Positions 4,880 through 36,021 of a stretch of 64,000 bases of DNA are shown piece after piece. The DNA is from Patescibacteria group bacterium (lineage in GTDB: Bacteria > Patescibacteriota > Patescibacteriia > UBA9570). The notes beneath the pieces were generated by a model that did no database searches, was not told where the DNA came from, and saw only the letters and a program-made list of their open reading frames with translations. Made by a program: the position numbers and the translations under genes. The stretch lies in the NCBI GenBank assembly GCA_041660305.1, contig JBAZWO010000001.1, positions 43,969-107,968 of the forward strand, given 5' to 3'. The first letter of the stretch is position 1, and each line of letters starts with the position of its first letter.

Positions 4880-5926
4880 TTAATTACTCATTTTTTTCTC
4901 TACTTTTTTTTCTAGCAATTTAATATTTTCCAGATAGGCTTTTTCAACGGGAGAGAGCGTTTTAGCTTGAAATTTTTTATATTCATTTTCTGCTTTTTCT
5001 ATGGCTTTTTTATGTGTTATTTTTCCAGCATCAATCAATATCCCTTTGCCGTAATCAGAAAGTAATTTATCTAAAGATGCAATATGATCTGTCATATGCA
5101 TTACTTGCTGATCCATAGCACGCAATTCTGTCAATTCAAAATATGCCGAAACAAGTCTGTTTAACTTTTCCAATTCTTTCGCAGATAAATAATTTTTAGC
5201 AATTCTCACTTCTTCTAACACAGGTAAATCTCCCTCAAAAACCGTCAAACCCATAAATTCTTTATTGCTATCAGCACGGTTGTATATGACTTCCGACGCT
5301 GTTTGTTTATGCGCAGCATAGTGCAATTTGTTTTGCACGATTTTAAAAAACTTAATTGAATGTAGAGATTTTGGATCATAATCCACGCTGGTGGCATAAA
5401 GATCTAAAACTTGTCTATACAACATTTTTTCACTAGAGCGAATATCCCGAATACGAGATAAAAGCTTTTTCCAGTATAAGCCGCCGCCATTGTTTTTCAA
5501 AAATTCATCATTCATGCTGAACCCTTGAATTAAATATTCACGAAGTCTCGCCGTGGCCCATTGGCGAAACTTTGTGCCCTGTATGGATTTCACTCGATAA
5601 CCGACAGAAATAATTGCATCTAGACTATAATGTTTTACTATATTTTCTTGAGTTTTCCCCTGAATTGCTCCATGTTCTGCGGTTCGTCGGAAATCCCGAC
5701 ATACCACTTTTTCATCCAATTCTCTCTCTTTAAAAATATTTTGAATATGTTCAGTGATGGTAGATCTGCCTTTACCGAAAAGTGCCGCCATTTGTGTCTG
5801 CGTAAGCCACACTGTCTCACCCTCAACACGCACCTCAATACCAGGCGCCCCATCCGCACCTTCATAGATAATTATCTCGCCGGAATTATTGTTATTTGTT
5901 GTATTATTTTTATCTTTTTTATTCAT
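4880..5926 (-). CDS. RhuM-family protein (full length)
   Basis: 348 aa. Reads ..VWLTQTQMAALFGKGRSTITEHIQNIFKERELDE..VCRDFR.TA.....K......YSLDAIISVGYRVKS..GT.FRQWATARLREYLIQGF..ND..LKN. Confidence 0.8.
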   Translation of the reverse strand: MNKKDKNNTTNNNNSGEIIIYEGADGAPGIEVRVEGETVWLTQTQMAALFGKGRSTITEHIQNIFKERELDEKVVCRDFRRTAEHGAIQGKTQENIVKHYSLDAIISVGYRVKSIQGTKFRQWATARLREYLIQGFSMNDEFLKNNGGGLYWKKLLSRIRDIRSSEKMLYRQVLDLYATSVDYDPKSLHSIKFFKIVQNKLHYAAHKQTASEVIYNRADSNKEFMGLTVFEGDLPVLEEVRIAKNYLSAKELEKLNRLVSAYFELTELRAMDQQVMHMTDHIASLDKLLSDYGKGILIDAGKITHKKAIEKAENEYKKFQAKTLSPVEKAYLENIKLLEKKVEKKMSN

Positions 5927-28208: not shown

Positions 28209-28441
28209 TCATGCGCCGGCGGACGCTTTTCTCTCCTTCCTTCCGCCACTTCCCTATTTGGTTCAGTTAATAGCTGGAACAAAGAGGCAAGAATTTTTTA
28301 TTTTTTCCTTCAAAATGAATAAAAACAAAAAGACCTTCGACCAATTTGTGGTGTATAAACCACGGCCAAAAGCCTTTTCTAGATGAATCATAGCACAATT
28401 TTATTTGACGTCAAGAGCTATATCTATATATACTAACCCTG

Positions 28442-28526
28442 GCTGTATAGGAGTGTCCCGAGTACTCGGGACTGAGAAAACATCCTAACAACTTGATCTG
28501 GGTAATGCCAGCGCAGGGAATATAGC
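28442..28526 (+). promoter_or_regulatory. TPP (THI-box) riboswitch aptamer
   Basis: P1 pairs gctgtat with atatagc. The conserved CTGAGA and ..TTGATCTGGGTAATGCCAGCGcAGGGA elements are present. It lies upstream of the thiamine ABC transporter. Confidence 0.85.
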
Positions 28527-28557
28527 TTAATGGCTTTTTAAATAAACCGTTGGCTAA

Positions 28558-28582
28558 TTCCCTATCTAATTAGGGATTTTTT
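28558..28582 (+). terminator. riboswitch expression-platform terminator
   Basis: TCCCTA-tctaat-TAGGGA followed by TTTTTT. Confidence 0.6.
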
Positions 28583-28636: not shown

Positions 28637-29629
28637 ATGAAAAAACTATTTTTTATTCCAATTATGTTACTCCTAGCGCTCGGCGCTGGTTGTAGCAAAA
28701 CAGCAACTTCAACTAACACGCCTGCTCAACCGCCAGAGCTAACGATATATACCTACGATAGCCTGGCGGCTGATTACGGCTTATTGCCAAAAATCATCCC
28801 ACAGTTTGAGCAAGCTAATAACGTCAAAGTAAATGTTGTTACTTTCCCCGATACCGGCACCATGCTTAATCAGTTGTTTTTAGAAAAAAATGATCCTCAA
28901 GCTGATGTGGTGCTGGGTTTAGACAATGTCAACCTAGAAAAAGCCAGCTCTGAACAATTGTTTACTGCTGAATTAACCCCGTTCGATTACGGTTATGTAG
29001 GTTTTGTATATGATTCTGAAGCTATCCAATTTTCTGAGCCTATTAGCTTAATGGATTTAACGAATGAACAATATAAAAATAAAATAATTATTGAACAGCC
29101 CGGTTTGTCTTCACCTGGCACACAGTTATTAATTTGGTCTTATCAAGCTCTCGGCGAAACACAGGCTAAAATATTCTGGGATAAAATGAAAGATAATGTA
29201 TTAACAGTAACACCAGATTGGAACACAGCTTATTACACTATGTTTATGGAAGGCGAAGCGCCTATTGTGCTAAGCTATTTAACCAGTCCGGCTTATCATA
29301 TCGATCAGGAAAATACTGAACGTTATAAAGCTATTCCCATAAAAGAAGGCTATTTAAAACAAACTGAATATGTCGCTATTATTAATAATTCTACCAAACC
29401 AGCCTTAGCTCAACAATGGATAAATTATATGATCTCCAATTCAGTACAAAAAGAAATACCTACCACTCAATGGATGTGGCCAATAGATGCCACCGTGTCA
29501 TTACCTGCCGCTTACAGTAAAATTATTACGCCAATGCCTGAACAAATTATGGCTTTACCGGCTGATAAAATTGCTAAAAATTATGCTACCTGGCTAAATG
29601 ATTGGAATACTACTTTTAACATTAAGTAA
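28637..29629 (+). CDS. thiB: thiamine ABC transporter substrate-binding lipoprotein
   Basis: Lipobox LALGAGC. Has a TbpA/ThiB-like periplasmic binding pattern (LTIYTYDS...VVLGLDN...). Lies downstream of the TPP riboswitch. Confidence 0.8.
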   Translation: MKKLFFIPIMLLLALGAGCSKTATSTNTPAQPPELTIYTYDSLAADYGLLPKIIPQFEQANNVKVNVVTFPDTGTMLNQLFLEKNDPQADVVLGLDNVNLEKASSEQLFTAELTPFDYGYVGFVYDSEAIQFSEPISLMDLTNEQYKNKIIIEQPGLSSPGTQLLIWSYQALGETQAKIFWDKMKDNVLTVTPDWNTAYYTMFMEGEAPIVLSYLTSPAYHIDQENTERYKAIPIKEGYLKQTEYVAIINNSTKPALAQQWINYMISNSVQKEIPTTQWMWPIDATVSLPAAYSKIITPMPEQIMALPADKIAKNYATWLNDWNTTFNIK

Positions 29630-29638
29630 CCCTTAAAA

Positions 29639-29713
29639 GCCCCCTAGCCCCCTAAAGGGGGAATTAACTATTTTTCCCCCTGCCCTTTAGGGAAGGGGGC
29701 TAGGGGGAAAGGC
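29639..29713. repeat. GC-rich hairpin element (locus 5)
   Basis: CCCCCTAGCCCCCT...AGGGGGCTAGGGGG is a 14-bp perfect inverted repeat with inner G/C-tract arms. It sits between thiB and thiP. Confidence 0.85.
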
Positions 29714-29725
29714 CTGTGATTTTAT

Positions 29726-31120
29726 ATGGCTACGGTAATTTTATCAAAACTCTGGTTTAGCACTTGGGAAAGTGCTCTTACTGTAGTGTTGTCTTTACTT
29801 ATCGGCGGCGGATTGGCCTTATTAGAGCACGCTTGGAAACAATCTCCGCCAAGATATTTTACATTATTCATGGTATTGCCGATTTTTATGCCCACTGCCA
29901 TTGTCGCTATCGGTTTTGTAGCCTTATGGGGTAATGCCGGATATGTTAACACATTACTAAGCTGGTTTAATTTACCGGCCGTTCACTTACTGTATACGCC
30001 TTACATTATTATTATCGGCCACTTATTTTACAACGTCCCACTCGCCTATTTAGCCATTCATCTGCGCTTACGACTATTACATAGTTATCTAACGGAAGCG
30101 GCCGTAAGTTTAGGATCCTCAACTTGGCAAACTTTTTGCGTGGCGGTTTGGCCACGCTTGCGTTCAACTGTGTTAGGCATAAGTGTGATGATTTTTTTAT
30201 ATTCATTTATGAGCTTTGCTTTGCCCTTGATTTTAGGCGGTATTCGTTACCAAACTTTAGAAGTATACATTTATACTTTGGTTACTCAACAATTTAATTT
30301 GACCAGCGCTTTACAATTATCTGCCGGGCAATGGTTGGGCTTAACTTTATTAATATTAATTGGCTGGAGAAATAACGCAACAACATCTGAATCACGTTTA
30401 CATTTAGCCGAACCAACGGTTTCTTATAAAATTTGGTGCTTAAGATTAATGCGCTTTAGCTTAATATTTTTTATTATCACGCCTTTAATAGCCTTATTCA
30501 TTAATGGTTTTGGACAAAATCATTATGCCGCCTTAGCTCGTACGCAATTCTGGTCTGCCTGGTTTAGAACATTATCTATAACACTGTTAGTAATGGCAAT
30601 AACTATACTAACAAGTTTAAGTGTGTTGTTATTGAAAAAAACCAAATTAACAAAAATAATAGTCATGTTACTAGCTGTGTCACCGGTTATGTTTGGTGCT
30701 TTAGCTTTATGGCTAATTGGCAAATCTATTTTAGCTTTAACTATGGCTTATATTTTATTACTTTTACCTTTAGTGAGTTATTTGTTGCTTACCAGCTGGC
30801 AGGCGCGTCCACCGCATTTTATAGAAACTCTGCAAATATTAGGAGCCAGCCAATGGCAACGTATCTTAGCTACTTTACGCCTATTAGCACCAGCCATTTT
30901 TAAATCATTTGCCCTTGGTTTGGCGTTTGTGTTTGGTGATATTGCTTTAGCCACATTATTGGCGCCCTATCGCGAGCCATTAGTTATGAGCTTAAGTTAT
31001 GGCTTAAGCGGCTCTTATCGGTTTCATGCGGCCAGTACCGGCATGAGCCTGGTTTTGCTTACTATTATTTTCGGCATTTTAATAATCATGCTGTTAGGCA
31101 AACGTTATGAACACTCTTAG
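29726..31120 (+). CDS. thiP: thiamine ABC transporter permease (duplicated 6+6 TM)
   Basis: 464-aa polytopic protein with two ABC-permease halves. Assigned from operon context with thiB and thiQ. Confidence 0.75.
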   Translation: MATVILSKLWFSTWESALTVVLSLLIGGGLALLEHAWKQSPPRYFTLFMVLPIFMPTAIVAIGFVALWGNAGYVNTLLSWFNLPAVHLLYTPYIIIIGHLFYNVPLAYLAIHLRLRLLHSYLTEAAVSLGSSTWQTFCVAVWPRLRSTVLGISVMIFLYSFMSFALPLILGGIRYQTLEVYIYTLVTQQFNLTSALQLSAGQWLGLTLLILIGWRNNATTSESRLHLAEPTVSYKIWCLRLMRFSLIFFIITPLIALFINGFGQNHYAALARTQFWSAWFRTLSITLLVMAITILTSLSVLLLKKTKLTKIIVMLLAVSPVMFGALALWLIGKSILALTMAYILLLLPLVSYLLLTSWQARPPHFIETLQILGASQWQRILATLRLLAPAIFKSFALGLAFVFGDIALATLLAPYREPLVMSLSYGLSGSYRFHAASTGMSLVLLTIIFGILIIMLLGKRYEHS

Positions 31121-31787
31121 TGTACAACATTGTTCTGTAACTATTAACCATAAATCTATACTCCAAGATGTATCTTTTGATTTATTCACTCCGGAAATTA
31201 TTAGCATTATTGGTCCGTCTGGCTCCGGCAAAAGCACTTTATTGCGCAGTATAGCGAGCTGGCAAAAATATTCCGGCAATATTATTTTGTCTAGCAAAAT
31301 TATTGGTTGGGTAGAGCAACAATCTACTCTATTTCCCCACTTAACAGTTTTTGAAAATATCGCCTATCCATTAAAAATTAGGCACATTTCAAAAAACGAC
31401 TTACAAAAAAAAGTAACTGCTTTATTAGAACGGTTTGGTATAACAGATTTAGCCAAACGTTTACCACAACAATTAAGCGGCGGTGAACAACAGCGTGTAT
31501 CAATTGCTCGAGCGTTAATTTATGAACCAAATTTATTATTGTTAGACGAGCCGTTTGGCTCGCTGGATGCTTTATGGAAATATGATATGTTAAACTGGTT
31601 AAAAAATGTTTTACACGAGCGCCCCATTCCCACGTTATTTGTTACTCACGATCAACGTGAAGCCAGATTTATCAGCAATCGGGTTATTTGTTTAGCTAAC
31701 GGTAATATTGCTTATGACGGCGCTTGGGCTGATATTCAAGCTTGCACTAATCCGACCGTACAACAACTCTTGGCAAAAGCGCTGTAA
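31107..31787 (+). CDS. thiQ: thiamine ABC transporter ATP-binding protein
   Basis: Walker A GPSGSGKST, signature LSGGEQQRV and Walker B LLLLDEP. Confidence 0.8.
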   Translation: MNTLSVQHCSVTINHKSILQDVSFDLFTPEIISIIGPSGSGKSTLLRSIASWQKYSGNIILSSKIIGWVEQQSTLFPHLTVFENIAYPLKIRHISKNDLQKKVTALLERFGITDLAKRLPQQLSGGEQQRVSIARALIYEPNLLLLDEPFGSLDALWKYDMLNWLKNVLHERPIPTLFVTHDQREARFISNRVICLANGNIAYDGAWADIQACTNPTVQQLLAKAL

Positions 31788-31796
31788 TTGTATACT

Positions 31797-32528
31797 ATGT
31801 ACGATATTAATATGCCTAAAGATACTAGCGCCGCTTTGCAAAAAAAACTCAAACAACGCGATAACGAAGTCTGTTTATTGCAACAAATCACCAATACTAT
31901 CAGCTATAATTTAAACTTAGATGAAGTGTTGCGTGAAATTGTAAACTTAGTTTCCACTACTATATGCACCGAATCTTGTTTAATTTATTTAGTACAAGAT
32001 AATACATTAATACTTAAAGCCTATAAAATTCCCGGCCAAACAACCGTGCAGAATGTTATTATCAAGTTCGGCGAGGGTATTACCGGTCGCGTAGCCAAAC
32101 AACGTCAACCAATTTTATTAACTAAACGCGCTTACGCGGATAAACGATTTATTACTATTCCTAATGTTGACATAGAACGTTTAGAAACTTTTCTCTCGGT
32201 GCCGATTATTTGGCAAAATAATATTGTTGGAGTGATTAACATTCAAAATCGTTATGTGAGACATTATAATAAAAACGAACTACAGCTTTTAAACACTATC
32301 GCTACACAAGTAGGCGGCGCTATTTCTAACGCTAAATTACTATCTGAAACAAATATTTTGAAACAAACTATCGCCGCCAGAAAAATTATTGAAAAAGCCA
32401 AAGGCTTGTTAATGAAACAGCGCAACCTATCTGAAAATGAAGCCTATAAACTAATGCGAAAAAAATCTATGGATTCAAAAAAAAGTTTACAGGAAGTGGC
32501 CGAAGCAATTTTATTAACCTTGGTTTAA
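31797..32528 (+). CDS. GAF-ANTAR RNA-binding regulator (paralog 1)
   Basis: GAF block ...FGEGITGRVA...FLSVPI..QNN.VGVINIQN. The C-terminal ANTAR helix pattern is RKIIEKAKGLLMKQ..LSE.EAY.L.RK.SM.S.K...EVAEAIL. The ORF-track start at 31788 is a TTG; the first ATG is at 31797. Confidence 0.8.
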   Translation: MYDINMPKDTSAALQKKLKQRDNEVCLLQQITNTISYNLNLDEVLREIVNLVSTTICTESCLIYLVQDNTLILKAYKIPGQTTVQNVIIKFGEGITGRVAKQRQPILLTKRAYADKRFITIPNVDIERLETFLSVPIIWQNNIVGVINIQNRYVRHYNKNELQLLNTIATQVGGAISNAKLLSETNILKQTIAARKIIEKAKGLLMKQRNLSENEAYKLMRKKSMDSKKSLQEVAEAILLTLV

Positions 32529-32539
32529 CTATATTAAAC

Positions 32540-33226
32540 ATGGCATCCTGTCGACATCAAAAAGAACTAATACTATTGCAACATATTACAACTACTATTA
32601 GTTATAACTTAAATCTTGATGAAGTATTACACGAAATAGTACATTTAGTTTCCAAAACTATGCGCGCTGATTCCTGTTTAATTTATTTAACCCAAGAGCA
32701 CTCCCTAATTTTAAAAGCTTCTAAAATTCCACATCCAAAAATGATTAATAAAGTAGCTATGCAGTTTGGCGAAGGTATTACCGGCTGGGTAGCACAACAG
32801 CGTGAAATAACCGTTATATCCAAGCAGGCTTATCAAGATAAGCGCTTCAAAATTGTCCCCCATTTAGATGAAGATCGTTTCGAAGCGTTTATTTCTGTAC
32901 CAATTATTTTTCAAAATAATGTTGTTGGGGTAATTAATGTTCAAAATAGAAAAAAAAGAATTTATACTCCTAAAGAACTTAAATTAATACAAACTATCGC
33001 CGCCCAAGTTGGTGGCGCCATTTCCAACGCCAAACTTTTATCGGAAACTGTCAATTTAAAACAAGCTCTGGCGGCTAGAAAAATTATCGAAAAAGCCAAA
33101 GGCTTGTTAATGAAACAACAACACTTGTCTGAAGAATCTGCCTACAATCTTATTAGAAAAAAGGCTATGAATAGCAAAAAAACTAGACAAGAGGTAGCTG
33201 AAGCCATCCTCTTGGCATTTAATTAA
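32540..33226 (+). CDS. GAF-ANTAR RNA-binding regulator (paralog 2)
   Basis: Collinear with paralog 1 over its full length and highly similar by eye. Confidence 0.8.
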   Translation: MASCRHQKELILLQHITTTISYNLNLDEVLHEIVHLVSKTMRADSCLIYLTQEHSLILKASKIPHPKMINKVAMQFGEGITGWVAQQREITVISKQAYQDKRFKIVPHLDEDRFEAFISVPIIFQNNVVGVINVQNRKKRIYTPKELKLIQTIAAQVGGAISNAKLLSETVNLKQALAARKIIEKAKGLLMKQQHLSEESAYNLIRKKAMNSKKTRQEVAEAILLAFN

Positions 33227-33247
33227 AGCTGTGTTATTATATGTTTG

Positions 33248-33320
33248 ATTAGCACAATGTCGTGCTGATGCAAATAGACAATGTAGTCTTCTACTCCTAT
33301 GTTAGAGTCGAAGATTTTTT
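33248..33320 (+). promoter_or_regulatory. ANTAR-type dual hexaloop hairpin overlapping an intrinsic terminator (glnA leader)
   Basis: Hairpin 1 (33248-33269) is ATTAGCAC-AATGTC-GTGCTGAT. Hairpin 2 (33276-33289) is AGAC-AATGTA-GTCT. The terminator (33287-33320) is TCTTCTACTC-8nt-GAGTCGAAGA plus T6. The 3' arm of hairpin 2 forms part of the terminator 5' arm. Confidence 0.65.
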
Positions 33321-33339
33321 ATTAAACAAAATTTATTAT

Positions 33340-34656
33340 ATGACCAAAACAGACATCTTAAAAAAAGTGCGAGCCGAAAACGTTACTATTATTGGTTTTT
33401 GGTTTACGGATATATTAGGTCAATTAAAAGGCATTACGTGTCCGGTGCAACGCTTGGCGCAGTATTTGGATGAAGGAATTTTTTTTGACGGATCATCTAT
33501 TGATGGTTATGCCCGTATTGAAGAAAGCGATCTAATTTTAAAACCAGTGCTTGAATCATTCGCTATTATTCCACTGGATGCCGATTCACATAAAATCGCT
33601 CGATTCATGTGCCTGGTTGATAATGCCAAAAATGAACCGTATCATAGCGATCCGCGCAATATTCTGGCTCAAAATGTGACCTATGCAAAAAAACTGGGTT
33701 TTACTTATTTTGTTGGACCAGAATTAGAGTATTATTATTTTAAAAATGATAAAAGTACTGCTTTATTAGATAATGGTGGCTATTTCGACCAATTAACCAC
33801 TCATCAAGGCACTTTTTTACGTGAACGTTCAGTAGAAGCTTTGGAAAAACTTGGCTACACCGTAGAACGTGGCCATCATGAAGTAGGTCCGTCACAACAA
33901 GAAATCAACATGAAATATGCCGATTCTTTAACGATGGGTGATATAGTGATGACGCAAAAATTCATTATTAAAGAAATCGCCCGCCAAAATGATTTATATG
34001 CCACGTTTATGCCCAAGCCGATGTTTGGCCAAGCCGGCAGTGCTATGCATATTCATCAGAGTTTATGGAAAAATGGTAAAAACTCTTTTTACGATGCTAA
34101 AGATAAATATGGTTTATCAACTATCGCCAAATCATTTATCGCCGGTATCATTAAACACGTTAACGAAATTGCTTTAGTAACCAACCAATACGTGAATTCT
34201 TATAAGCGCTTAGTGCCAGGTTACGAAGCCCCGGTTTATTTGGCTTGGGGGCGCCAAAATCGTTCGGCTTTGGTACGCGTACCGTTAACACGTGGTAATC
34301 CAAGCGCCGCACGCATTGAGTTTCGCTGTCCAGATCCAGCGGCTAATCCTTATTTGGCTTTTGCCGTAGCGTTACGCGCCGGCCTAAAAGGTATTGCGGA
34401 AAATTATCAACTGCAACCGCCCACCGAAAATAATATTTATGAAATGCAACCAAGTGAAATGAAAAAACGTGGCATTAAAGCCGTGCCGGCCACTTTAGGC
34501 GAAGCTATCCATTATGCTGAAACCAGCGAATTATTGCGCGAAACATTAGGTCAAGAAACATTTACTAAATTAATTGCCAATAAAAAAATTGAATGGCACA
34601 ATTACCGCCGCCAAGTGCATCAATACGAGGTTGATAATTACTTGCCAATATTATAA
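33340..34656 (+). CDS. glnA: glutamine synthetase, type I
   Basis: The start is moved to ATG 33340 (MTKTDILKKVRAENV...F.F.D..G) because the ORF-track N-terminus translates the leader. Also has GPE.EYY.F, HHEVGPSQ.EI, MHIHQSLW and NSYKRLVPGYEAP....W...NRSA.VR.P. Confidence 0.9.
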   Translation: MTKTDILKKVRAENVTIIGFWFTDILGQLKGITCPVQRLAQYLDEGIFFDGSSIDGYARIEESDLILKPVLESFAIIPLDADSHKIARFMCLVDNAKNEPYHSDPRNILAQNVTYAKKLGFTYFVGPELEYYYFKNDKSTALLDNGGYFDQLTTHQGTFLRERSVEALEKLGYTVERGHHEVGPSQQEINMKYADSLTMGDIVMTQKFIIKEIARQNDLYATFMPKPMFGQAGSAMHIHQSLWKNGKNSFYDAKDKYGLSTIAKSFIAGIIKHVNEIALVTNQYVNSYKRLVPGYEAPVYLAWGRQNRSALVRVPLTRGNPSAARIEFRCPDPAANPYLAFAVALRAGLKGIAENYQLQPPTENNIYEMQPSEMKKRGIKAVPATLGEAIHYAETSELLRETLGQETFTKLIANKKIEWHNYRRQVHQYEVDNYLPIL

Positions 34657-34665
34657 AATATAAGC

Positions 34666-36021
34666 ATGTGGTATCAAAAGCGATTTTATTGCTTAGTAGT
34701 TAGTTGTATTTTAATTTGGCCGATTGCTCTGCAAGCCATGAGCGTAACGGTAGATACCGATGATAACACGCTTGAATTTACCAATGATACTACCGTAGAA
34801 CTAACCTTTCCAGCGGCAGTTAATGATATCCAAGCGCTACCAATAAAACGTAATAATTTACCTTATTTAGTGGTAGCTACTTGGCAAGATAAAACCATTA
34901 CTCTTAGTTTATACAACAGCGCTGGCCAAATTATTTCTACTGAAACAATAGCCGCCTTAAAGGAAGACCGGCAGTTTACCGTAATGCGTTTGGAATATAA
35001 ATTGGTAAACGATGTTTCAACTATTCAATTACGGGCCGTAAAAACTAATAACGAAAGGAAACCGAAAAAGTATTTAAAAAAACAATATATAATTGATTTA
35101 AATAATGCTGATGTAATTCAACTTTACACTAGTAATACAGAAAAAATTGCTTACTCTGAACATTATTTTAGCGACAATAATGATGAAGCCGGCATGGATT
35201 ATTTTAATTGGGAACGTTTATCCGCTGGCTTATTATCTATTAATCGTAAAACTTCTATTGATAAACGCTGTGCTCTGCACACCGAATACATGCGCCTGAA
35301 TGATGAAATTACTCATTACGAAAAACCTTTTAAAAAAGGTTATACCAAAGATGGTTATCAAGCTGGTACTCAAAGTGATTTAACTGGCCAATTTAATACC
35401 AGCTTAACTAATGGCGTTGATATTTTAACCACCGCCATTTATCATCGTATTCCCATGTTGCGCAACAATTTATACGCTACGGGCTGGGCGGTATCTGATT
35501 TTTCAAAACAAGGTTATCGTTACGGTTGTTTAACAGTATATGCTCCGGAAGGTTGGTATACTACCAGCACTATGTTAACTAGTAACAAATATAATACTCC
35601 AGCGTTTAATCCAGATAACCATGAACCAATCCTCTATCCAGGCATTAAGCAAACTCATGTACCAGTTGATTTTATTACCGGTGAAACTCCCGATCCCTTG
35701 GCTAACGTAAACGGTACATACCCGGCTGGTTATCCAATATCTTTAATTTTTGCCTGGTATGACATAGTTACCGATTCTAACCTAAAACTTTTTCTAGCTA
35801 ACGGAGAAAAAGTAACTGGTTATTTTCAAGCACCTAATGATTCTAATGATCCTAATTCTGCCAGCCAACAAAACAGCTTGATATTTATTCCAGAAAAACC
35901 ACTAGCTTATGATACTACTTACACCGTAAAAGCTTCCGGCAAACGTAATGGTGTTACTTTTAGTAAACAATGGCAATTCACTACCGAACCGTACGACGAA
36001 AACTATCCCTACGCTGAATAG
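34666..36021 (+). CDS. hypothetical secreted protein
   Basis: 451-aa ORF with a signal peptide (LVVSCILIWPIALQA). No family assigned. Confidence 0.5.
   Translation: MWYQKRFYCLVVSCILIWPIALQAMSVTVDTDDNTLEFTNDTTVELTFPAAVNDIQALPIKRNNLPYLVVATWQDKTITLSLYNSAGQIISTETIAALKEDRQFTVMRLEYKLVNDVSTIQLRAVKTNNERKPKKYLKKQYIIDLNNADVIQLYTSNTEKIAYSEHYFSDNNDEAGMDYFNWERLSAGLLSINRKTSIDKRCALHTEYMRLNDEITHYEKPFKKGYTKDGYQAGTQSDLTGQFNTSLTNGVDILTTAIYHRIPMLRNNLYATGWAVSDFSKQGYRYGCLTVYAPEGWYTTSTMLTSNKYNTPAFNPDNHEPILYPGIKQTHVPVDFITGETPDPLANVNGTYPAGYPISLIFAWYDIVTDSNLKLFLANGEKVTGYFQAPNDSNDPNSASQQNSLIFIPEKPLAYDTTYTVKASGKRNGVTFSKQWQFTTEPYDENYPYAE

Follow-up and report, generated by a model that had tools for sequence, protein, structure and literature searches.

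A candidate ANTAR-type antitermination switch before glutamine synthetase in a Patescibacteria bacterium carrying tandem GAF-ANTAR regulators

Transcription antitermination by RNA-binding ANTAR proteins has been described for EutV/EutW and the eut leaders of Enterococcus faecalis, in which two hairpins (P1 and P2), each closed by a hexaloop with A at position 1 and G at position 4 (A1/G4), are separated by a short linker, and P2 overlaps an intrinsic terminator (PMC3369931, PMC8934654). EutV stabilises P2 against this terminator (PMC3369931, PMC8934654). Linkers of 5-12 nucleotides (nt) are functional in the eut leaders, whereas linkers of 3 or 14 nt impair function (PMC3369931). According to the paper describing the EutV-RNA structure, an ANTAR dimer is in contact with a single hexaloop at any one time, and residues R142, K143, E146, K147 and Y164, the last of which stacks on G4, contact the RNA or link the ANTAR domains (PMC8934654). 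Here we analyse a 64,000-nt stretch of DNA (‘the window’; from contig JBAZWO010000001.1) of a bacterium belonging to the Patescibacteria, or candidate phyla radiation (CPR), in which the glutamine synthetase (GS) gene glnA is preceded by a leader of this type and by two tandem genes, GA1 and GA2, each of which encodes a GAF sensor domain joined to an ANTAR domain.

Several other described systems bear on this locus. Terminator-overlapping ANTAR motifs were reported before GS genes in several bacteria by Ramesh et al. (2012), in whose Table S2 glutamine synthetase is named 25 times, and who also remarked that ANTAR regulation is generally tied to nitrogen metabolism (PMC3369931). These cases, from Firmicutes and others (for example, Alkaliphilus metalliredigens Amet_3386/3385), resemble the present locus in target class, in motif, and in having the regulator beside glnA. 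They differ in coming from cultured phyla and in that Table S2 makes no mention of GAF, whereas the host here is a member of the Patescibacteria/CPR and the regulator is a PtsP-like GAF-ANTAR protein that has been tandemly duplicated. According to that study, no GAF-ANTAR protein had been characterised (PMC3369931), and in the literature we searched none of the proteins with this common, long-known architecture has a defined ligand or target.

ANTAR antitermination of nitrogen assimilation genes is also carried out by GnfK/GnfR of Geobacter sulfurreducens (PMC2995071), NasR of Klebsiella, and NasS/NasT. GnfR, NasR and NasT have been studied experimentally and act at leader terminators of nifH, glnK, amtB and nas genes, in systems that respond to fixed-nitrogen limitation or nitrate. 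The sensor in these systems is the histidine kinase GnfK, the NIT domain of NasR or the partner protein NasS, in contrast to the PtsP-type GAF domain fused to ANTAR here. The GAF domains of PtsP (Enzyme I-Ntr, or EI-Ntr) and NifA are the best match of both window GAF domains in sequence and fold, over the whole length, but identity is only ∼30%, and the outputs of PtsP and NifA are a phosphotransferase and an AAA+ activator, respectively, rather than an RNA-binding domain.

We assign a probability of roughly 78% to the reading that glnA of this Patescibacteria (CPR) bacterium is under an ANTAR-type transcription antitermination switch read by a GAF-ANTAR protein, a conclusion drawn from sequence comparison and structural modelling. 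The same switch had been proposed in an earlier, sequence-only reading of this DNA, based on two collinear GAF-ANTAR paralogs, A1/G4 hexaloops AAUGUC and AAUGUA in the glnA leader, and a terminator that shares the 3' arm of P2, with 9 of 10 positions paired and six U residues following. All of these elements are present, and the antitermination reading is backed computationally by the protein domains, the RNA-contact residues, conservation, the incompatibility of P2 with the terminator, and a match to a covariance model built on published ANTAR targets. The elements of the locus are as follows.

33212-33240, plus strand: sigma-70-like promoter of glnA, TTGGCA-17 nt-(TG)TATTAT (promoter scan 10/12, extended -10)
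33248-33269, plus strand: hairpin P1 (recruitment hairpin), AUUAGCAC-AAUGUC-GUGCUGAU (sequence and RNAfold; -8.3 kcal/mol)
33270-33275, plus strand: linker joining P1 to P2, 6 nt (10 nt from one 4-base-pair (bp) core to the other)
33276-33289, plus strand: hairpin P2 (antiterminator hairpin), AGAC-AAUGUA-GUCU (sequence and pattern scan)
33285-33320, plus strand: intrinsic terminator (RNAfold stem 33285-33316; U6 33315-33320)
31812-32528, plus strand: GA1, GAF-ANTAR one-component regulator, 238 amino acids (aa) (Pfam GAF 8.6e-18, ANTAR 2.3e-19)
32540-33226, plus strand: GA2, GAF-ANTAR one-component regulator, 228 aa (Pfam GAF 2.3e-20, ANTAR 1.6e-18)
33340-34656, plus strand: glnA, type I GS, 438 aa (TIGR00653; Pfam Gln-synt_N and Gln-synt_C)

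GA1 and GA2 are separated by 11 nt, and the spacer between GA2 and glnA, which holds the leader, measures 113 nt. P1 has a 5-bp core, AGCAC-AAUGUC-GUGCU, at 33251-33266 and extends to 8 bp at 33248-33269, while the stem of P2 is 4 bp long; both loops are 6 nt, with A1 and G4. The terminator, UCUUC(U)ACUC...GAGU(C)GAAGA at 33287-33314 with T6 at 33315-33320, reuses the 3' arm of P2 (GUCU) in its 5' arm; a simple terminator scan missed it owing to the internal mismatch, and RNAfold detects it. In the minimum free energy (MFE) structure of the leader, P1 is combined with the terminator, extended by two pairs to 33285-33316, and P2 is absent (-27.6 kcal/mol, z -2.66). P2 alone is weak (-2.8 kcal/mol), and enforcing it takes the core element from -19.1 to -8.0 kcal/mol, a cost of 11 kcal/mol, leaving a shortened terminator stem that is detached from the U run. 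Because the MFE fold lacks P2, and because P2 is costly to enforce, the default of the leader should be termination, with P2 in need of outside stabilisation. The linker, whether counted as 6 or 10 nt, falls inside the 5-12 nt range that is functional in eut leaders, and the top of the P1 stem (YAC...GUR) fits the published consensus. The closing pairs of P2 differ, being AC/GU here and GC/GC in eut.

The leader belongs to glnA and not to the regulators, given the conserved promoter 5' of P1 and the genes that intervene between regulator and leader in relatives. In the window the -35 element of this promoter sits in the last codons of GA2, and an equivalent TTGaCa-N16-17-TAtAcT is found 6-9 nt 5' of P1 in all relatives inspected; the glnA transcript probably begins right at P1. 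An unrelated gene without a Pfam match lies between regulator and leader at five related loci (L007, L008, L010, L089 and L092), on the opposite strand in L092, and at all five the leader stays directly before glnA. In view of these two features, the single operon of regulators and glnA implied by the sequence-only reading is too simple a description. At two further loci, L005 (2473-3882) and L006 (4805-6244), a 479-aa, enterobacterial-like type I GS with ∼35% identity to the window GS is preceded by the retained regulator, promoter, dual hairpin and terminator, as judged by homology a displacement of the GS enzyme beneath a conserved regulatory module.

The window glnA product scores 481.9 bits against TIGR00653 (cut-off 429.15). 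Longer versions of the gene begin at GTG 33262 (open reading frame (ORF) list, 464 aa) or at ATG 33268 (public gene calls, 462 aa; L001 6729-8117), and by homology both of these starts translate the leader, including the terminator, as had been suspected of the ORF-list N-terminus. The homology-supported start is ATG 33340: Gln-synt_N begins at residue 14 of the resulting protein, and the alignment with orthologs runs from its first residue. This ATG, which has no visible Shine-Dalgarno-like sequence before it, is located 20 nt beyond the U run and is not overlapped by the hairpins.

A loose search for two hairpins with A..G.. hexaloops returns 8 instances in the window, compared with ∼5 expected from shuffled sequences, and since shuffles yield that many, the hairpin pattern alone is worthless as evidence. 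It is conservation, together with an independent covariance model, that marks the leader motif as more than a product of chance. For comparison we assembled 12 distinct related loci, seven found by genome scan (L004-L010) and five via homologs (L085, L086, L088, L089 and L092), giving 13 leaders including that of the window. All 12 relatives, each of which carries the regulator, display directly before glnA a sigma-70-like promoter, P1 (GUAC-A..G..-GUAC), a linker, P2 (AGAC-A..G..-GUCU), and a terminator that overlaps the 3' arm of P2. A1 is present in 25 of the 26 loops and G4 in every one, while loop positions 2, 3, 5 and 6 vary, as do the linker and the terminator interior. Relatives' linkers span 5-12 nt, except for the 23-nt linker of L092, which folds into a small hairpin of its own (5590-5612). 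The single loop lacking A1, GAUGAU in P2 of L088 (4783-4796), has G at position 1, like a few published eutA sites.

The folding behaviour is conserved as well. The MFE structure consists of P1 and the terminator in 13/13 leaders, enforcing P2 costs about 5-13 kcal/mol, and the mutual exclusion of P2 and terminator holds in each of the 12 relatives; the P2 stem is invariant. P1 of the window is the most stable of the 13 (-8.3 kcal/mol, vs. -3.2 to -5.3 kcal/mol in the relatives). The strongest P1 and the extra regulator copy occur in the same genome.

The independent model, R2, is a covariance model that we rebuilt from 31 published hits (Fig. S2, PMC3369931; 3+3 bp), and is not the authors' own model file; its source substrates come from eut-containing Firmicutes and Proteobacteria. 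With filters off, the glnA leader ranks first in 128 kilobases (kb), at 25.8 bits and E 3.4e-4 (next match 12.8 bits), and is the sole significant match in the 64-kb window. Four Enterococcus eut sites, serving as positive control, score 25.8-38.2 bits, so that the glnA leader equals the weakest of them. In the window, GCAC-AAUGUC-GUGC agrees with the consensus published for P1, SYAC-AAHGRH-GUDB, save for U at loop position 5. Of the outcomes that the sequence-only reading had named as refuting it, neither a failure against an ANTAR covariance model nor an absence of the hairpins before glnA in relatives was observed. A clade-specific model, R1, proved too focused, recovering outside the clade only L018 (27.9 bits) and two Enterococcus sites (∼19 bits). 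A search of Rfam 15 to E 10 gave no gathering-level match in the leader, and noise alone (E 1.6 or above) across 33150-33400.

The proteins fit such a target. The ANTAR domain (PF03861) is recognised at 69.4 bits in GA1 and 66.7 bits in GA2 (cut-off 27.3), and the two regulators are 65% identical over 223 residues. EutV residues R142, K143, E146, K147 and Y164 are all identical in GA1 and GA2 (alignment to 6wsh). An AlphaFold model of GA2 (predicted local distance difference test, pLDDT, 90.8) comprises a GAF fold, a continuous 51-residue helix (144-194) and a three-helix ANTAR bundle, and in an alignment three of the four EutV heptad positions in the pre-ANTAR helix are hydrophobic. The likeness to EutV extends over the ANTAR fold, the putative coiled-coil helix and the five residues. 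GA1 and GA2 are unlike EutV/EutW in their input, a putative ligand-binding GAF domain within a one-component protein rather than a phosphorylated receiver with a partner kinase, and in their target, which is glnA rather than ethanolamine utilisation, with one site in the window as opposed to the multi-site eut regulon.

In the mechanism that we propose, glnA transcription would start at its own promoter (33212-33240), a few bases 5' of P1, and the leader would by default fold into P1 and the terminator (33285-33320), stopping transcription before glnA. GA2, and probably GA1 too, would form a dimer held by the long coiled-coil helix, and the activated regulator would bind the two A1/G4 hexaloops in turn, P1 first and P2 second. 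Binding would stabilise the weak P2, whose 3' arm is also the base of the terminator, allowing RNA polymerase to read through into glnA. With a GAF input of the PtsP (EI-Ntr)/NifA kind, glutamine may favour the off state and 2-oxoglutarate the on state.

The candidate ligands are suggested by the affinities of the GAF domains, both of which are, by sequence and predicted fold, nearest to the GAF domain of PtsP. NF008283 (PtsP) is the top NCBIfam match of both paralogs (E 1e-23 to 5e-25; 4.5e-25 for GA2), with NifA next; GA2 shares 30% identity with E. coli PtsP across 159 residues, and its GAF domain matches the PtsP GAF structures 3ci6 (E 8.6e-22) and 3trc (E 1.6e-14). The same structures head the Foldseek results for the GA2 model, in which ranks 1-3 are all PtsP GAF domains (template modelling (TM) score 0.85-0.87). 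The PtsP GAF domain binds glutamine, which is inhibitory, and 2-oxoglutarate, which is stimulatory (PMC13104625, PMC4848567); both metabolites bear on the control of GS.

Distant relatives of the regulator in other phyla also stand next to dual-hexaloop/terminator motifs before nitrogen genes: amtB-glnB in L018 (3992-8115), an unknown gene followed by amtB-glnB in L021 (1482-5589), and nadE (NH3-dependent NAD synthase) in L022 (2309-4462). The regulators at these three loci are single polypeptides of ∼400-456 aa; that of L018 aligns as GAF-GAF-ANTAR, the others being known from tblastn matches only. As judged from this alignment, a fused form in which a pair of GAF inputs serves a single ANTAR output occurs elsewhere. 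In Levybacteria (L015, L016) and Planctomycetes (L025), GAF-ANTAR genes lie near GS, and a simple scan found no convincing dual hairpin. Because of the similarity to the PtsP GAF domain, the ligands of PtsP, and the nitrogen-gene targets of the distant relatives, sensing of glutamine and 2-oxoglutarate by the GAF domains of GA1 and GA2 is, by analogy, the best hypothesis for the ligand.

Several observations weigh against the reading of the locus as a nitrogen-responsive ANTAR switch. The ligand of a GAF domain cannot be read from homology, and cAMP-binding and other GAF domains are also significant fold matches in Foldseek. Covariation in the stems is minimal: 97.4% of cells are paired, the only compensatory change is a U-A to C-G replacement in the window's own P1, with none in P2, and a covariation score as high as the one observed arises in 46 of 500 shuffles. 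This formal signal is weak because the stems, near-invariant in the clade, hardly vary, and the invariance of P2 could reflect the constraint imposed by the terminator rather than protein binding. Finally, neither R1 nor R2 found a further ANTAR target in the 64 kb of genome that the search covered.

A link between the two regulators and the two hairpins was implied by the sequence-only reading, which asked whether the sensors heterodimerise on the hairpins. The same pair of hairpins accompanies just one regulator in each of the 12 relatives, the closest of which (P0006) is 78% identical to GA2. The hairpin pair is older than the duplication, so that a scheme of one sensor for each hairpin does not explain the second copy. 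By identity and distribution, GA2 is the ortholog of the relatives' single-copy regulator. No GA1 ortholog was found among 5.8 billion proteins, in which the best match is GA2 (65%) and nothing else exceeds 61.5%, and a scan of metagenome contigs with GA1 returned one distant relative only. GA1 retains the ancestral place beside thiQ and the ancestral N-terminus, MPKD.... Of the 109 positions at which conservation among orthologs is 90% or more, GA1 departs from the consensus at 20 and GA2 at six. Fifteen of the 20 GA1 departures fall in the GAF domain, clustered at residues 51-93 (for example, ASKIPHPKMINKVAM to AYKIPGQTTVQNVII, and GEGITGW to GEGITGR), and the linker helix and ANTAR domain are nearly unchanged.

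Phylogenies place GA1 in different positions. Uncorrected neighbour joining (NJ) with midpoint rooting sets it outside the whole clade on a long branch; NJ on Kimura-corrected distances with outgroup rooting makes it sister to GA2, at 65% bootstrap; and a count of rare residues shared with GA1 does not single out GA2. A recent tandem duplication with subsequent acceleration is favoured but not proven as the origin of GA1, an older paralogous origin or acquisition from a related lineage being less favoured. GA1 is most likely a lineage-specific, fast-evolving tandem copy that has an altered sensor and works on the same RNA as GA2; on comparison of the sequences, its likeliest contribution is to give this one switch a further sensitivity or specificity.

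The main rival to this view of GA1, which we consider doubtful but take seriously, is that GA1 is a redundant or decaying duplicate, with GA2 alone running the switch and the tandem arrangement carrying no regulatory meaning. A single regulator suffices in all 12 relatives, our searches turned up no ortholog of GA1, and the changes at 20 of the 109 conserved positions, compared with 6 in GA2, are consistent with relaxed selection. However, the ORF is intact, with Pfam scores as good as those of GA2; the predicted coiled coil, the ANTAR domain and all five RNA-contact residues are preserved; the changes are focused in the GAF core rather than evenly spread; and identical copies occur in three independent metagenomes.

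Less probable is the proposal that GA1 and GA2 form heterodimers, or that GA1 acts as a dominant modulator, such that one RNA switch integrates two different signals. The nearly identical linker helix and ANTAR domain make mixed coiled-coil dimers plausible, the GAF cores differ at otherwise invariant positions, and 4 of the 6 conserved positions changed in GA2 are also changed in GA1 (hypergeometric P = 0.01), which would fit co-adaptation. These shared positions are, however, equally explained by shared ancestry, the dual hairpin is older than the duplication, so that the RNA does not require two proteins, and an ANTAR dimer touches one hexaloop at a time (PMC8934654). A more specific version, in which GA1 would sense another metabolite or threshold and, in mixed dimers with GA2, would form a two-input gate on one RNA switch, is more speculative again. 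If true, the gate might weigh, for example, glutamine against 2-oxoglutarate, and could be the main nitrogen-status sensor of a reduced-genome CPR bacterium with no PII or AmtB gene seen in 64 kb.

Two alternatives concern the leader itself. It is improbable that the leader acts mainly on translation or RNA stability, or that it is a plain terminator of the upstream regulator genes. Translational ANTAR targets do exist in actinobacteria (PMC8164766), and there is no terminator between GA2 and the leader, so the leader terminator would also end the regulator transcript. Against this view, the hairpins are clear of the glnA start, which follows the U run by 20 nt; a terminator overlapping P2 is kept in 13/13 leaders, even where a gene separates regulator from leader; and a conserved promoter lies just 5' of P1. 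That the leader is a riboswitch sensing a metabolite such as glutamine, or that its hairpins are paired by chance, with the ANTAR genes unrelated to it, is scarcely credible, for although loose dual-hairpin patterns arise by chance at the rate given above, the Rfam 15 matches are noise, the A1/G4 signature, conservation and R2 score all point to an ANTAR target, and regulator and leader co-occur in all relatives.

The DNA of the locus is identical in three independent metagenome assemblies, and the nearest named relative locus belongs to a metagenome-assembled genome (MAG) of Candidatus Kerfeldbacteria. Several third-party annotation (TPA) MAG records among L004-L006 and L008-L010 bear the title ‘uncultured Gammaproteobacteria bacterium’, and that of L012 names an archaeon; such labels look unreliable. 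Gene order is kept across the clade: thiBPQ, regulator, glnA, DUF1858, DUF6580, and ribonucleotide reductase. Upstream of the regulators in the window lies one further landmark.

31785-31787, plus strand: stop codon (TAA) of a thiQ-like ABC ATPase gene (ORF listing, sequence read)

The regulator operon had been described as abutting thiQ with no visible terminator. The position of the stop and the conserved gene order stand; co-transcription of thiQ and the regulator is not a conserved feature, because their spacing in relatives ranges from 17 to ∼380 nt, and some relatives carry a gene on the opposite strand between the two. The last thiQ codons before GA1 overlap a weak promoter-like site (31770-31798, plus strand; TTGGCA-17-TACTAT), which is also found in L085; if used, this site would give the GA1 mRNA a 5' untranslated region of ∼7-10 nt before ATG 31812. 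In-frame ATGs for GA1 occur at 31797 and 31812, and the latter, which is the NCBI call and matches ortholog N-termini, is the more likely start.

The thiB/thiP/thiQ-like ABC transporter genes (28637-31787) are preceded by a thiamine pyrophosphate (TPP) riboswitch (RF00059, 63.6 bits) at 28439-28536 on the plus strand, flanked by a promoter-like site (28405-28434) and by a terminator-like hairpin with a T run (28559-28576). A functional link between the glnA switch and this TPP-riboswitch transporter operon was considered and rejected, on the same grounds of variable spacing (17 to ∼380 nt) and an intervening opposite-strand gene. On the other side of glnA, 9 nt past its stop, a 451-aa ORF (34666-36021, plus strand) begins with a signal-peptide-like N-terminus. 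It has no Pfam or NCBIfam family, is missing from every related locus, and on that distribution represents an insertion specific to the lineage; it may share the glnA transcript and hence come under the glnA switch. Within the 64-kb window, no other GAF or ANTAR genes, and no amtB or PII genes, were found.

The locus leaves the known mechanism unchanged and is a clean further example of an ANTAR switch. What is new is its host among the Patescibacteria, a one-component regulator that has a PtsP-type GAF domain and a single target that can be identified, and a paralog confined to this species and remodelled in the core of its sensor. With a regulator of 228 aa, a single short RNA target at the probable 5' end of a transcript, and a strong ligand hypothesis, it offers a compact test case, to the value of which the natural pair of paralogs, differing mainly in the sensor core, adds. 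For the small-genome CPR/Patescibacteria, comparison of these loci points to control of nitrogen assimilation by a regulator-leader module that appears to outlast even the exchange of the GS it governs.

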